Assembly: GCA_001792115.1 (NCBI GenBank)
Contig: MGFX01000001.1
Span: forward strand, 240,606-304,605
DNA: 64,000 nt
Direction: 5' to 3'
Source: Candidatus Woesebacteria bacterium RBG_16_42_24
Lineage (GTDB): Bacteria > Patescibacteriota > Microgenomatia > UBA8517
The notes under the pieces were generated by a model. It saw only the letters and a program-made list of their open reading frames with translations. It was not told where the DNA came from and made no database searches. Made by a program: the position numbers and the translations under genes. Below are positions 36,387 to 42,928 of this stretch, piece after piece (positions within the stretch are counted from its first letter, which is position 1; every line of letters begins with the position of its first letter).

Positions 36387-36654
36387 AAAAGCAAAAACTA
36401 TTTTCCGCCTTCACCTACATTTTGGCGGATGAAATAGAAAGAAGGTCGAAAAAATCGTAATATAATCAAAATGGAGAGAGAACAGCAGATTGTTGAAGCA
36501 AAACGAGTTTTGCGCCGACAACTTAGCCTTCGGGGTAAACCACATACGCGGCATATAAGGATGCACCGTCAGGCCGCCGAAGATAATCATAACAGACTCC
36601 CCGCCCCACGAATTTAAGTGGCAACTTTAGCTTCAAAGGGGTAGAATCTAGAAA

Positions 36655-37095
36655 GTGTTAAAGGTGAATGACAAAGCTCCCGAGTTTAAACTACCCGATC
36701 AAAAGGGCAATTTACACAGCCTTAGCGATTATAAAGGGGGTTGGCTTTTGATTTATTTTTATCCGAAGGATTTTACTCCGGGTTGTACCAAAGAAGCCTG
36801 CTCATTCAGGGATAATTTTTCGCGCCTTAAAGACAAGCTGCAACTAGTTGGCATAAGCGGGGACAGCGTAGAAAGCCACAAAAATTTCAGCGAAAAGTAT
36901 AATTTACCTTTTACAATACTTTCCGATCCGGAAAGAAAAGCGATAAAAAATTACGGCACAAATGGACTGATTTTTGCCAAAAGAACTTCTTTTTTAATAA
37001 ACCCTCAAGGAACAATTGAGAAAATTTACGAAAAAGTCGATCCCACCACCCACGCCGAAGAAATCCTTAAAGACATTTCTTCCCTGACAGCTTAA
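36655..37095 (+). CDS. bcp: Peroxiredoxin, Bcp-type thiol peroxidase
   Basis: The FTPGCTKEAC peroxidatic-cysteine motif is present. 146 aa. Confidence 0.8.
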   Translation: MLKVNDKAPEFKLPDQKGNLHSLSDYKGGWLLIYFYPKDFTPGCTKEACSFRDNFSRLKDKLQLVGISGDSVESHKNFSEKYNLPFTILSDPERKAIKNYGTNGLIFAKRTSFLINPQGTIEKIYEKVDPTTHAEEILKDISSLTA

Positions 37096-37190
37096 ATCAT
37101 CCTTTGAAAATCTGGCAAATTTAACCCCTAGAGAGCCTGCAACGTTAAAATTTTGGTTAATAATTATTTACGTTGTAAAATACGGGCAGA

Positions 37191-37664
37191 GTGACTGATA
37201 TAGACGCTTTAACCAATAAATCAAAAAAGGTAATCGACACAATTGAATATATCGATCTTGCAACCATAACCGAAGATGGAAAGCCCTGGAACTCACCTTT
37301 ATGGTTTGTAAGAGACGATAAGTACAACCTTTATTTTTACTCACCCAAATACACCCAACATTCAGAGAATATAAGAAACAACGGCAATGGATTTGTTGTT
37401 ATTTACGACTCGAGAGCTCCGGAAGGCACAGGATTCGGAGTCTATATGACGGTTGAAGTGAAAGAGCTAAATACGGTTTCCGAGGTCGACGAAGCCCTCA
37501 AATGGGTTTATAAGAAAAAGAAAAAGAAAAGGACACCGCAGGAGTTTTTGGGCAATTCCCCTAGAAGGATTTACAAGGTTACTCCCAAGGAGGCCTGGGT
37601 AAATGACGCTGAATTGAAAAATGGTTTTTACCTAGACTATCGAATTCCAATAAAACTTACATAA
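37191..37664 (+). CDS. Pyridoxamine 5'-phosphate oxidase-like FMN-binding split-barrel protein
   Basis: LATITEDGKPWNSPLWFVRDDKYNLYFYS is typical of the PNPOx-like / general stress protein 26 family. Confidence 0.55.
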   Translation: MTDIDALTNKSKKVIDTIEYIDLATITEDGKPWNSPLWFVRDDKYNLYFYSPKYTQHSENIRNNGNGFVVIYDSRAPEGTGFGVYMTVEVKELNTVSEVDEALKWVYKKKKKKRTPQEFLGNSPRRIYKVTPKEAWVNDAELKNGFYLDYRIPIKLT

Positions 37665-37670
37665 ATAAAT

Positions 37671-38138
37671 ATGGGCAGTGTGAATAAGAAAAAACTAGTA
37701 ACTTTTTTAACCGGGGCTCGTGCAAACACCTATGCGGCTGGTAAGGGAAAGGTAAAACCAGTTTTTCCGGGCTCGACCCAGCTTGAATATAAGGAGGGAG
37801 ACTGGCTATATCGCGACATTTACAATTTGGGAAATAAAATCTTCGTGGGTCTTGAGACAGTCTATTTCAAGGGGAAACCCGTCTGGTCGATGTGCTATTA
37901 CGGAGATTTTAAAAAAATGACGGAAAAAGAAATTGATGAGATTCTGCGGGAAGCCTTAATTAAATACAAAGATAAAGTAAGACTTTGGTACCAGGTGGAG
38001 TGGAAAAACAAAAACTTCAAGTATATTTGCACACCCGACTCCCGAGAAGGCATAGAAGAAGTGTCCGGACTCGAGGAAATTTATAAAGACCGAGAGAAAG
38101 TTTATTATCTTTATTACGCCGGCGGCCTCATAGGCTAA
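37671..38138 (+). CDS. Hypothetical protein, DUF5680-like
   Basis: YAAGKGKVKPVFPGSTQLEYKEGDWLYRD...GKPVWSMCYYG resembles a family that I know only as a domain of unknown function. Confidence 0.35.
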   Translation: MGSVNKKKLVTFLTGARANTYAAGKGKVKPVFPGSTQLEYKEGDWLYRDIYNLGNKIFVGLETVYFKGKPVWSMCYYGDFKKMTEKEIDEILREALIKYKDKVRLWYQVEWKNKNFKYICTPDSREGIEEVSGLEEIYKDREKVYYLYYAGGLIG

Positions 38139-38205
38139 CGGCACATTCCTCGCCCCAGCCTCGGTCATATTTTTATTTGAACACTGGGAAATTCGAAGGC
38201 GGGAA

Positions 38206-40448: not shown

Positions 40449-40658
40449 CCGACCACGTCTCTAGACGGGTAGTTCCCGACACGCCACCATCCGGTAACAG
40501 TTCGAGATACAGGTCTTTGTATCTATGAATATACTAAATTTGGTATATTTGTCAACCCCGATTCCAAAACCTCCCTCTTTCTATGCCCTCAGCACTGTGT
40601 ACTAAGACTATGTTATGAACTATGCTCTATGCGCTATCTATAGTAGAATACGGGCAGA

Positions 40659-41474
40659 ATGAAAAAGCAAAACAGCACCCCCAAACTTCTTCCGGAAAAA
40701 GTAATTAGACCCCGGGTTTCTCCCGAGGAAGTCGGTAGGTACTATCTGAAATCAGAATTAGGACGCATCTTTCCTGGACAAAAAGAGATTAGGGAAAATC
40801 TGGACAGAAGGATTGATAAACTCGATAGCTTTGAATTCTGGAGACTCCTTCAGGCTCTATCCTTCGCCTACAGATTAAATTATATATTTCTTTTCGTGGG
40901 AAATTCCGGTTATTCATGGAGCGAGGAGACATGGCGTATTTCGCGCCTCACACTTACTGGGATAAACCCCGACATAAATGCAATCACTTTTTCCCCCGAA
41001 ATTAGTAGGTCTCCTATCAAATTTCGCGATTTTCTTAAGAAATATTTTGCCGATCACCCCCAAGACGATCCTCAGAAGCTTAATGAGTTTCGCCCGAGCC
41101 AAAGGCCCATTGACTACCCCAGGATAATATTAAGGGAAGACGAAGCTAATATACTTCTTCTGGATGGATCAAATAGGCTAATTGAGCTAATGTTTAGACA
41201 AGAGGAGGAGGTAGTTGCTTTTATCGGCAGAAAGAATGGTAAAAAGGAGAAATTTAGAATAGGAGATAGCACCTTCTTACTTTTGAGAAATCTTTATGAA
41301 AAAGGGGATTCCCAGGAGAGGCGTGCGGTGTTAAAGGTTGTAAAGATGCTTTTGGGCATAAGCCTGGATGGCAGACGGGCGGTTGAGAATTACTGGGTAA
41401 GACATCCTCGTGACGAAAAGCTAAAGGCAGTCGGCCGAAGCCTATTAAAAGCACATACTTCTAAGTCGACATAA
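40659..41474 (+). CDS. Hypothetical protein (271 aa)
   Basis: ORF preceded by the 3' half of the conserved island leader (tagtagaatacgggcagaATG). Confidence 0.4.
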   Translation: MKKQNSTPKLLPEKVIRPRVSPEEVGRYYLKSELGRIFPGQKEIRENLDRRIDKLDSFEFWRLLQALSFAYRLNYIFLFVGNSGYSWSEETWRISRLTLTGINPDINAITFSPEISRSPIKFRDFLKKYFADHPQDDPQKLNEFRPSQRPIDYPRIILREDEANILLLDGSNRLIELMFRQEEEVVAFIGRKNGKKEKFRIGDSTFLLLRNLYEKGDSQERRAVLKVVKMLLGISLDGRRAVENYWVRHPRDEKLKAVGRSLLKAHTSKST

Positions 41475-41580
41475 CTTCCAAATCTTACCTTCCCTATGCA
41501 CTCTGATCTATGTACTAAACACTAATAACATTCTGGCAACTTTAGCCTTAACTCCGGAAAAGTGCTAAAATGCGGGCCAA

Positions 41581-42216
41581 ATGGCATATATTTTTCTCGA
41601 CGAATCGGGTGACCTAGGATTTAACCCCAAAAAGAAAAGTTCAAAATATTTTGTAGTAACGGTTTTGACTACATCAGACAAGAAACCCATAGAAAAATTA
41701 GTTAAGAAGGTTCATTCTAAGCTGAGAAAGAAAATAAGAAAGTTAAGTGGAGGCATTCTCCACGCCTATAAAGAGAAACCTTCCACTAAAAAAAGGATCC
41801 TTTCCGGCCTTGCTGGTATTGATTGTCTAATAATGGCTATTTATCTAAACAAATCAAAGGTATACACCAAACTGAAGGAAGAAAAACATATTTTATATAA
41901 CTATGTGGCCAATATTCTTTTAGATAGGATTATGAGAAAACGATTTACTTTCTCAAGAAGCAAAATATTCTTAATTGCCTCCAAAAGGGAGACTAACAAG
42001 TTTTTAAACGAAAATTTTAAAAACTATCTCAAAAATCAGGTATCAAATAGGCATAAAGTAGATATGGCAGTAGAGATAAAAACCCCAGCCCAAGAAAGGT
42101 CTTTGCAGGCAGTCGACTTTGTATCCTGGTCGATATTCAGAAAATACGAGCATGGAGACGAAACCTATTATAATTTGATTAAGAGCAAGGTAATTGAAGA
42201 AAATTCTCTCTTCTAA
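41581..42216 (+). CDS. DUF3800-family protein (paralogue 2)
   Basis: N-terminal 'IFLDESGDLG' and C-terminal 'LQAVDFVSWSI' match the DUF3800 signatures. Confidence 0.6.
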   Translation: MAYIFLDESGDLGFNPKKKSSKYFVVTVLTTSDKKPIEKLVKKVHSKLRKKIRKLSGGILHAYKEKPSTKKRILSGLAGIDCLIMAIYLNKSKVYTKLKEEKHILYNYVANILLDRIMRKRFTFSRSKIFLIASKRETNKFLNENFKNYLKNQVSNRHKVDMAVEIKTPAQERSLQAVDFVSWSIFRKYEHGDETYYNLIKSKVIEENSLF

Positions 42217-42410
42217 AACGCAAAACCCTGTGCGCTATTTCTGAGCAACCATCCGGAAGCCCACGCACAAGGATTTACTTGCAACCCCTATTATACATAG
42301 CTGTCAAGTCATTTACCATACCCTCTAAACCTGAATCATAAATCTAAGTTCGTTTGCTTTCCCTGGCAAATTTAGCCTCAACTCCGGAAAAGTGCTAAAA
42401 TACGGGCAGG

Positions 42411-42779
42411 ATGCAGAAGAAATATCGCATTGGTGAAATTGCCGCACTTACAGAAAAGATCAAAAAGTTTAGAGATGAGCGGGATTGGAAACAATTTCAT
42501 AACCATAAAGATATGGCGATTTCCCTCGTTTTAGAGGCTACGGAAGTTTTAGAACACTTTCAGTGGAGAACTCCAGAGGAGGGTGAGGAACGGGCAAGAA
42601 GCCATAAAGAAGAACTCGCGGATGAACTGGCAGATGTAACCTATTTTCTCTTCGAACTTGCCGACAACCTCAAAATAGATTTAGGTAAGGCTTTAATTTC
42701 AAAATTAGAAAAGAACGTAACTAAATATCCTATAGAAAAATCAAAGGGTAAAAATTTAAAATATACGGAATTAAAATAA
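42411..42779 (+). CDS. MazG-like nucleoside triphosphate pyrophosphohydrolase
   Basis: The EATEVLE...ELADELADVTYFLFELADNLKIDL pattern (the paired acidic EExxE/ExxD helices of the all-alpha NTP-PPase fold) is present. Confidence 0.65.
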   Translation: MQKKYRIGEIAALTEKIKKFRDERDWKQFHNHKDMAISLVLEATEVLEHFQWRTPEEGEERARSHKEELADELADVTYFLFELADNLKIDLGKALISKLEKNVTKYPIEKSKGKNLKYTELK

Positions 42780-42928
42780 ATAAACTGACCTCTTTGTAAA
42801 AATAGCCCCAAACCTTCTGGCAAATTTAGCCTTAAGGTCTTCACTAAAGATTCTGGAAAAGTGATAAACTGACCATTGACAATATTTCTAGATTTGAATA
42901 AATTGTAATAACCAAATAAAACCCGAAT

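Follow-up and report, generated by a model that had tools for sequence, protein, structure and literature searches.

Regulon operators that overlap core promoters are well known from the SOS box of LexA and from the RDRM site of DdrO in Deinococcus, where many genes are leaderless, and an activator site can even replace the -35 element, as the pho box does from a position 10 bp 5′ of the -10. The closest described category for the element examined here is the putative mobile promoter (PMP), recognized as a segment of at least 50 nt with at least 80% identity that lies directly upstream of a start codon and is flanked by non-homologous coding sequences (PMC3488235). The element in question is a promoter module that recurs in an accessory and defence island of the uncultured groundwater organism Candidatus Woesebacteria bacterium RBG_16_42_24, within a 64,000-nt stretch of contig MGFX01000001.1 (positions 240,606 to 304,605, forward strand) that we call the window and number from its first letter. 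This is a real, non-random and lineage-specific promoter or regulatory module, its part in regulation being predicted. We consider it probable that its copies form a portable family of sigma-70-type promoters, in which a conserved box occupies the -35 region and likely serves as the site of a shared factor, and that the family has spread by duplication and recombination. Most likely, the module is of a kind already known and is newly described for this little-studied lineage.

A preliminary description of this DNA had listed a repeated core at six positions, and all six proved exact. Specifically, TGGCAAMTTTAGC is found at 36619, 39033, 39745, 41534, 42364 and 42818, in each case on the + strand, as compared with 0.03 occurrences expected from shuffled sequence (0 of 100 shuffles contained six). 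A seventh instance with one mismatch (TGGCAAATTTAAC) lies at 37113, 78 nt 5′ of the start codon at 37191, and was absent from that description. All seven copies are intergenic, on the + strand and limited to 36.6–42.8 kb. When scored with a weight matrix made from 25 instances, the window copies reach at least 23 bits, and the next-best site anywhere in the 64 kb reaches 8 bits. Anchored alignment reveals a sharp 5′ edge and ~20 conserved positions, tCTGGCAAmTTTAGCcTcaa. The 16-mer within this box can be read as CTGGCA-AAT-TTAGCC, or two -35-like hexamers 9 bp apart, and the box also includes a dyad, GGCaAAtTTaGCC (also GGCnAAnTTnGCC), in which 5/6 pairs are complementary as judged from the letters.

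Downstream of the box, the module continues with a spacer of fixed length, a -10 hexamer TA(G/A)AAT and a discriminator of 6–9 nt, often ACGGGCAG, that abuts the start codon. The 3′ unit TARAAT+RCGGGCMR is exact at 37176, 40644, 41566 and 42396. There are two spacing classes, with the -10 starting either 9 nt (short) or 18 nt (long) after the 16-mer. Numbered along the strand, window copies 1 and 3 are short, as are instances on the related contigs L078, L080, L096, L123 (three copies), L144, L166 and L191; the long class holds window copies 4–6, L123-1677 and L157. The spacing of copy 2 is 19 nt, and copy 7 is without a correctly placed -10. Within the classes, the box-to-(-10) length is constant despite diverged spacer sequences. 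The short form corresponds to CTGGCA-18-TAGAAT or, equivalently, TGGCAA-17-TAGAAT. In terms of consensus match only, both forms show the 16–18-bp hexamer spacing of sigma-70-type promoters (short, CTGGCA/GTGGCA-18-TAGAAT; long, TTAGCC-18-TAAAAT). A consensus scan calls copy 1 as GTGGCA-18-TAGAAT with 9/12 matches, copy 3 scores 8/12 by eye, and in copies 5 and 6, both long, the -10 is TGn-extended (GTGCTAAAAT). The 9-bp offset between the two hexamers inside the 16-mer is also the offset that separates the short and long forms. From the -10 to the start codon, the gap is 9 nt at 37191, 40659, 41581 and 42411, 7 nt at 36655 and 6 nt at 39789; the distances reported earlier therefore stand for the acgggcag copies and for 36655, but not for 39789, where 7–8 nt had been given.

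Could the box simply be part of the standard, or strong, housekeeping promoter of the organism? The -10 and the leaderless geometry are indeed the same at housekeeping genes, and ubiquity of the module in front of such genes had been raised in the preliminary description as the finding that would speak against a special element. Outside the array, the remaining ~58 kb of the window and 9.5 kb of flanking DNA upstream (~67 kb of housekeeping DNA) contain no box, and we reject this reading, which is scarcely credible. Approximately 24 promoter-bearing intergenic regions outside 36.6–42.8 kb are free of the box, including those of tuf, rpoB, ftsK, alaS, rplC and hrcA, and 10 of these 24 have a -10 located 5–11 nt before the start. 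Housekeeping genes use TTGACA-N17-TATAAT promoters (rpoB, 20914 and rplC) and plain TATAAT promoters, and the canonical -35 of the genome is TTGACA. Moreover, an 18-mer scan of 185,579 species genomes (one genome per species, the source genome not being among the representatives) returned only ~67 single matches, which is near the chance level by our own estimate; all nine matches inspected (9/9) lay in coding-looking sequence.

With respect to translation starts, the module genes combine a -10 located 6–9 nt from the start codon with the absence of a Shine-Dalgarno motif, which fits a leaderless geometry with predicted transcription start sites. The same arrangement is general in this genome. 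Among the 33 window genes with an upstream gap of at least 40 bp, 17 carry TANNNT 5–11 nt before the start, and ~5–6 would be expected from base composition by our own estimate. Examples are tuf (TATAAT-9-ATG), ftsK (TATAAT-6-ATG) and alaS (TATAAT-8-ATG), and TATAAT or TAAAAT is likewise found 6–9 nt before the ATG of housekeeping first genes (11269–11289, 14409–14427, 33433–33450 and 50977–50995). Shine-Dalgarno-like motifs are scarce even within operons (11/40 under a permissive definition). The earlier suggestion of leaderless or near-leaderless mRNAs is thus reasonable on geometry, but it is not specific to the module, since about half of the window genes with such an upstream gap, tuf, ftsK and alaS among them, look alike in this respect. 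What marks the module out is the box and, less so, the ACGGGCAG discriminator and a preference for TAGAAT/TAAAAT over TATAAT.

A metagenome scan recovered ~20 genuine box instances among chance matches, mostly from groundwater or sediment. Here too, the boxes lie ahead of small and diverse co-oriented genes, and clusters are frequent: L123 carries six copies, some of them diverged, within 5.3 kb, L078 carries three, and L084 and L106 carry two each. On L123 they precede HigBA, a 70-aa open reading frame (ORF), DUF3800, two genes recognized by eye (for a TspO-like protein and a 427-aa trypsin-like protease) and lexA. Sequence variation is seen in the secondary copies of these contigs and falls chiefly in the TGG part (CGGCAAATTTAGCC, CCGTAAATTTAGCC, TCGCAAATTTAGTT). 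A string search of the literature for the box returned no paper. A phage origin was rejected after a 16-mer scan of IMG/VR, which gave 88 single matches, 0 of them in a -10 context.

The box keeps a fixed phase to the -10, points the same way as the gene that follows and sits at the -35 position, all of which argues for a role in transcription initiation. Moreover, its conservation over 16–20 bp exceeds what a -35 element needs and persists when the box stands at least 9 bp off the -35, and together with the partial dyad this suggests recognition of the whole box by one factor. We propose that the module joins the box (TCTGGCAAMTTTAGCC+tcaa) to a minimal core promoter, composed of the -10 TA(G/A)AAT and a 6–9-nt discriminator, often G+C-rich, that ends at the start codon, and that the genes served would be leaderless or near-leaderless accessory genes. 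The predicted site of action of the box is the -35 region, where it would influence transcription initiation. In the short form, the box would supply a -35-like hexamer, either CTGGCA with an 18-bp spacer or TGGCAA with 17 bp. In the long form, its second half TTAGCC would take the -35 position because the box lies 9 bp farther upstream, and the -10 would then usually be TGn-extended. Most likely, the box is also the binding site of one trans-acting factor, whether a repressor, an activator or a dedicated sigma, and such a shared factor would make the cassettes a co-regulated set. Finally, short intergenic segments would be duplicated and recombined, and the modules would thereby spread among cassettes and related genomes; nothing indicates a site-specific system dedicated to this.

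Several observations weigh against this proposal. No gene for a regulator or special sigma is present among the window ORFs scanned, and the two forms are offset by 9 bp, less than a full helical turn, which would be awkward for a face-specific activator. Roughly 1/3 of the metagenomic boxes, plus window copy 7, are without a properly spaced -10, and the perfect cores of the metagenomic boxes are partly a search artefact because these instances were retrieved with an exact 18-mer. In addition, the two spacing classes might stem from two ancestral copies rather than from functional constraint.

The box and the core promoter are separable. DUF3800 orthologues, a sample that is unbiased as to the box because it was retrieved by protein similarity, include seven loci without it in six independent contexts (L096, L280/L282, L283, L285, L287, L289 and L290). 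Four of these box-less DUF3800 genes (L280/L282, L283, L287 and L289) retain a proximal gaaaagTGnTAAAAT-type or GTGATAAACT -10, and the MazG orthologue of L078 retains TAAAATACGGGCAGGATG with the box absent. Between PNPOx and DUF5680, an entire short module is present in L166 but only TAAATA-TGGGCAGT-GTG in the window, and on related contigs complete modules are found directly upstream of the self-sufficient TTGACA promoters of toxin–antitoxin (TA), restriction–modification (RM) and lexA cassettes. Homology breakpoints fall at module edges. In particular, the TA cassettes of the window and L123 are homologous from 39029 onward, 2 nt ahead of the box, alignment of the DUF3800 cassettes begins at 39743, and two additional cassettes separate the TA pair from DUF3800 in L123. 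Since the box is present or absent ahead of orthologues and breakpoints coincide with its edge, the intergenic regions are mosaics of exchangeable pieces, and modular shuffling in a broad, descriptive sense is a feature of this array.

These same boundaries would be expected if the box were mainly a recombination anchor, with crossover in shared 16–50-bp modules moving the cassettes by Campbell-type or double-crossover recombination following DNA uptake and with the promoter role secondary. This reading is compatible with a portable promoter module, and beyond the breakpoints at 39029 and 39743 and the cassettes gained or lost at module boundaries in L123 and L166, it draws on the mosaics of promoter fragments (copy 7 with its GGAAAAGTGATAAAC remnant, and the ATAAACTGACC repeat at 42780 and 42864) and on the clear duplication-on-insertion at the island head, where three copies of the rpsJ 3′ end are seen. 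However, an identity of 16–31 bp is short for RecA-dependent exchange, and DUF3800 cassettes exist as single box-less insertions in six other genomic contexts. The array is also identical (>=99.9%) in four independent metagenome assemblies, L072 (98.4%) ending before the array, and the fixed box-to-(-10) distance represents a transcriptional constraint for which a crossover site has no need. We therefore view a primary role as an anchor as unlikely, while giving it some weight. Recombination at the module and a common regulator had been the two explanations offered in the preliminary description; the former survives as shuffling broadly understood, and no regulator emerged for the latter. A site-specific system lacks support because no hairpin is formed, no recombinase is encoded in the scanned ORFs and the array is stable across metagenome assemblies.

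The most familiar system of that type would be an integron, in which case the repeats would be attC/attI-type sites and the integrase would be encoded elsewhere (CALIN-like array). One co-oriented site per intergenic region, cassettes of 1–3 genes (TA, MazG, RM and small unknowns) and a low-GC island all resemble such an array, and because CALIN-type arrays can lack an integrase, a missing integrase alone is not decisive. The sites themselves are nonetheless unlike attC. Folding of the seven intergenic regions on both strands (14 folds) gave z values of -1.10 to +1.11 relative to shuffles, and RYYYAAC/GTTRRRY core sites are absent from the box and its conserved flank as read from the letters. 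Box sites carry a promoter and keep a constant distance to the start codon downstream, whereas attC closes promoterless cassettes. Furthermore, ~40 of ~75 window ORFs scanned against Pfam (those at 52.7–63.5 kb were not scanned) include no sigma factor, integrase or tyrosine/serine recombinase, and no such recombinase is present among the genes called on related contigs. Taken together, these results render an integron-like array very unlikely. An attC-like folded site or RNA motif was rejected as well, as the regions fold no better than shuffles and show no Rfam overlap.

Known elements of other types were considered, namely a structured RNA or untranslated-region element and a known operator or alternative-sigma site (sigma-54, CIRCE/HrcA), and the chance that the box is one of them appears minimal. 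In terms of RNA, no Rfam match overlaps any copy even at E<=1, no fold beats shuffles, and the box is not in the local transcript because it lies upstream of the -10. The TGGCA...GC pattern is superficially similar to sigma-54 promoters, but the box has GG-N8-GC instead of the invariant GG-N10-GC (TGGCAC-N5-TTGC) and is followed by a -10 at sigma-70 spacing, so a sigma-54 promoter was rejected on spacing. The long form, TTAGCCTCA-N9-AAGTGCTAA, recalls the CIRCE sequence TTAGCACTC-N9-GAGTGCTAA, and the genome encodes HrcA. This candidate was rejected too, as the long form has 5 mismatches, no window site has three or fewer, and a genuine CIRCE (TTAGCACTC-N9-TACTGCTAA, 2 mismatches) follows a TTGACA promoter upstream of hrcA at L293 5826–5852. 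The hrcA-grpE-dnaK-dnaJ operon itself is situated just upstream of the window (L293 5816–5880, left flank). Given the duplicated rpsJ ends, a further candidate was that the box derives, as a relic, from the 5′ coding end of rplC, with LANLASK in frame 3 aligned to NAILASK of L3. The best ungapped match of 21/32 equals shuffle maxima of 20–23, 0/150 L3 relatives start with LANLASK, and this candidate found no support.

Individually, the modules (all on the + strand) are arranged as follows. Copy 1, a short form (36617..36657), has its box AGTGGCAACTTTAGCTTCAA at 36617–36636 and TAGAAT at 36642–36647, followed after 7 nt by GTG 36655 of an AhpC/TSA peroxiredoxin gene (Pfam). In copy 2 (37111..37193), the box TCTGGCAAATTTAACCCCTA (37111–37130) is followed by a first TAAAAT at 37146–37151, 19 nt after the 16-mer, and by a second in TAAAAT-ACGGGCAGA (37176–37190), which abuts GTG 37191 of a PNPOx-like gene. 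This gene had been described as having the 3′ half of the module alone, as had the gene at 40659; the statement is correct for the latter, where TAGAAT-ACGGGCAGA-ATG (40644..40661) precedes a 271-aa protein with no assigned function, but not for 37191, given its distal box at 37113. A box-less variant of the 3′ half, TAAATA-TGGGCAGT-GTG (37666..37682), is found ahead of DUF5680. The start of DUF5680 is probably GTG 37680, not ATG 37671 of the ORF list, based on alignment with the L166 orthologue (MDKKKLL.. vs VNKKKLV..). Copy 4, a long form (39743..39791), consists of a box at 39743–39762, TAGAAT at 39777–39782 (18 nt after the 16-mer), 6 nt and ATG 39789 of DUF3800. The long-form copies 5 (41532..41583) and 6 (42362..42413) each have a box and ggaaaaGTGcTAAAAT of the extended -10 type, at 41566–41571 with GCGGGCCAA and ATG 41581 of the second DUF3800 gene in copy 5, and at 42396–42401 with ACGGGCAGG and ATG 42411 of a MazG-like gene in copy 6.

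The remaining two copies are associated with a second shared unit. Copy 3, a short form (39031..39128), has its box at 39031–39050 and TAGAGT at 39056–39061, and downstream of these are ccATTGACAATat (39092–39104), TAATAT (39118–39123) and ATG 39126 of a HigB/Gp49-HTH toxin–antitoxin pair. This entire stretch, including the ccATTGACAATat unit of the TA cassette, is conserved in L123 70–170. Copy 7 (42816..42931) has a box at 42816–42835 with no properly spaced -10, the remnant GGAAAAGTGATAAAC at 42854–42869, then ccATTGACAATat, TAAATT at 42899–42904 and ATG 42929 of an N6/N4 DNA methylase gene that is followed by a TdeIII-type endonuclease. The second shared unit had previously been given as ccattgacaatat at 39092 and 42877; the first site is correct and the second is 42873. 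The ccATTGACAATat unit holds a 9-bp near-palindrome, ATTGACAAT (39094–39102 and 42875–42883), and at the TA cassette the paired -10 (TAATAT) ends just 2 nt ahead of the ATG. In view of these two features, the unit may be an antitoxin-type operator, instead of or besides a -35 element. At copy 7, an exact 11-bp direct repeat, ATAAACTGACC (42780–42790 and 42864–42874), flanks a 73-bp segment that holds the box. Its second copy belongs to GGAAAAGTGATAAACT, an extended -10 remnant that resembles the promoters of box-less DUF3800 orthologues.

The island that houses the array parts rpsJ from rplC in the gene order rpoB-rpoC-rpsL-rpsG-fusA-tuf-rpsJ, island, rplC and the remainder of the ribosomal supercluster, with nearly all genes on the + strand. 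It extends over ~35.0–51.7 kb, of which the box copies cover only 36.6–42.8 kb, and has a GC content of 0.36–0.41, compared with 0.42–0.48 elsewhere in the window. Its genes encode an AhpC/TSA peroxiredoxin, PNPOx-like and DUF5680 proteins, an SAM methyltransferase, the HigB(Gp49)/HTH toxin–antitoxin pair, two DUF3800 proteins, the 271-aa protein without assigned function, a MazG-like protein, the DNA methylase with its TdeIII-type endonuclease, a type VI retron (HTH_VI + RT_VI), a HicB-like antitoxin with a small downstream ORF, and a DEAD-box helicase. The description of these genes as unrelated cargo applies to most cassettes but not to the two DUF3800 genes behind copies 4 and 5, which are distant paralogues (25% identity). 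The island is found unrearranged in four aquifer metagenome assemblies at >=99.9% identity, and a fifth contig, L072 (98.4%), spans only the part before the array. A protein of Candidatus Woesebacteria bacterium RBG_19FT_COMBO_42_9 matches the DUF3800 protein at 100% identity. Use of the 171-aa gene as a query for diverged strains returned only near-identical relatives, and the single diverged contig stops short of copy 1.

At the head of the island, the rpsJ 3′ end (ATAGAAATCAAAATGTAG, 34987–35004) is repeated downstream at 35112–35129 and 35809–35826 as pseudo-ends that differ from it by synonymous-type changes. A shared 37-nt unit follows both end 1 and end 2 (35022–35058 and 35136–35172). 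In the related strain L292, the rpsJ end directly adjoins the promoter of the 171-aa gene, and because the 189-aa gene and the ~115-bp unit are missing there, we regard these as insertions between duplicated rpsJ ends. From its layout, the rpsJ 3′ end looks like a site of att-like or Campbell-type accretion with no integrase in sight. Such duplications could be products of the same process as the array if the box were the cis-site of a dedicated system specific to Woesebacteria-type members of the Candidate Phyla Radiation (CPR), either as the operator for a master regulator that switches an entire defence and stress array at once or as an integrase-less, integron-like crossover site between rpsJ and rplC; we judge such a system to be distinctly improbable. 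Also near the array head, a 48-aa basic ORF (MEREQQIVEAKRVLRR..., 36471–36617) has its own TAATAT-7-ATG start and ends at box copy 1, with weak homologues in two further box-bearing contigs, L078 and L084. As a candidate regulator it was set aside, being without family, defence-model or database relatives, and is only a lead.

The DUF3800 genes, predicted to encode RNase H-fold nucleases tied to ncRNAs (PMC10910872), are accompanied by further conserved elements. An Rfam DUF3800-IX RNA (50.3 bits) is located at 40447–40555 on the - strand, convergent with the first DUF3800 gene, and has its own strong TTGACA-16-TATATT promoter (40555..40528); a hairpin and T-run at ~40420–40447 resembles, by eye, a shared terminator. 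The layout of DUF3800 gene and convergent RNA is the same in L123. After the second DUF3800 gene there is a different, Rfam-negative but conserved-looking stretch (42217–42310) that shares CCATCCGG. Farther along the island, the type VI retron module falls within 45076–47004, with HTH_VI at 45687–45992 (E 7e-24) and RT_VI at 45979–47004 (E 1e-77). The ~600 nt upstream of these genes are non-coding, begin with a TTGACA-17-TAGATT promoter (45076–45104) and presumably represent the retron ncRNA.

Other intergenic repeats were also seen. A REP-like hairpin family, (a)tCCTGAGyGnnRTCGAAGGa(t), occurs genome-wide in both orientations (window, 38960–38977, 38986–39018, 57062–57087 and 3987–4012 (-); elsewhere, L293 ~3800–3830, L123 1650–1676 and 4390–4414). 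Because such a hairpin is often directly upstream of the box, contig-to-contig homology can span both. A second, CTATGYRCT-rich motif lies upstream of the 271-aa gene and copy 5 (40590–40640 and 41494–41516), in L123 870–945 and in the hrcA leader (L293 5860–5905), where it forms an imperfect inverted repeat. Tandem repeats at 16275–16363, (TTCCAGA/TTCCAAT)n and then the inverse (GGAGATT)4, stand upstream of a 742-aa gene at 16372, (CCAAATT)n lies upstream of 57088, and short intergenic heptamer or hexamer tandem repeats are found at 57015–57045 and 63595–63605.

Almost nothing is known about promoters and gene regulation in the CPR, since these bacteria are uncultured. The locus provides a picture of the Woesebacteria core promoter, with a -10 6–9 nt before the start, essentially no Shine-Dalgarno motif and TTGACA as the canonical -35, along with a candidate regulatory box characteristic of accessory and defence cassettes and evidence for the exchange of short intergenic promoter modules separately from the genes under their control. 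If the box is an operator, it would represent the first regulon-like unit in the lineage and a handle, via DNA-affinity capture, for its regulator; if it is only a propagated promoter, it would add a further clean example of promoter reuse on horizontally acquired genes.

Compared with known systems, the module shares features with several. Leaderless-gene promoters of Actinobacteria and Deinococcus, for which Cortes et al. 2013 is reportedly an example, have TANNNT 6–9 nt before A/GTG and no Shine-Dalgarno motif, as here; in the Woesebacteria genome, this geometry is general, is read from sequence and is not module-specific. The short form is like pho-box promoters in that its 16-bp element ends 9 bp before the -10 and occupies the -35 position, but the box is without an internal direct repeat, has a second spacing class and has no linked response regulator. 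LexA and RDRM operators are similar in being ~13–17-bp, partly palindromic sites placed over the -35/-10 of unrelated stress and defence genes. In contrast to them, the box sites are clustered, the dyad is imperfect (5/6 pairs) and the cognate regulator is only hypothetical; the lexA genes of related contigs carry another palindrome (ACTGAC..GTCAGT), unlike the box. Integron cassette arrays, with attC sites and the Pc promoter, likewise present co-oriented small accessory cassettes (TA, RM, MazG and unknowns) with a recurring site. Here, however, there is no hairpin-forming imperfect inverted repeat, no R′/R′′ cores and no integrase in the scanned ORFs, and every cassette has its own promoter, the repeat being that promoter.

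The PMP (Matus-Garcia, Nijveen & van Passel 2012, PMC3488235) is like the module in that conservation stops near the translation start and variation gathers near the start codon. Copies 5 and 6 (41528–41580 and 42358–42410) are identical at 45/53 positions (~85%; 93% over 45 nt by a repeat finder), which places them within the PMP limits of length and identity, and their flanking genes are non-homologous, with DUF3800 versus MazG-like downstream and the 271-aa protein versus DUF3800 upstream. This is the only pair to reach 50 nt and 80%; the other pairs fall below because only a 16–31-nt box and spacer are common to them. The unit here is instead a 16–20-bp box phased to the -10, and its copies, ahead of predicted leaderless genes, are tandemly clustered in one island rather than dispersed.

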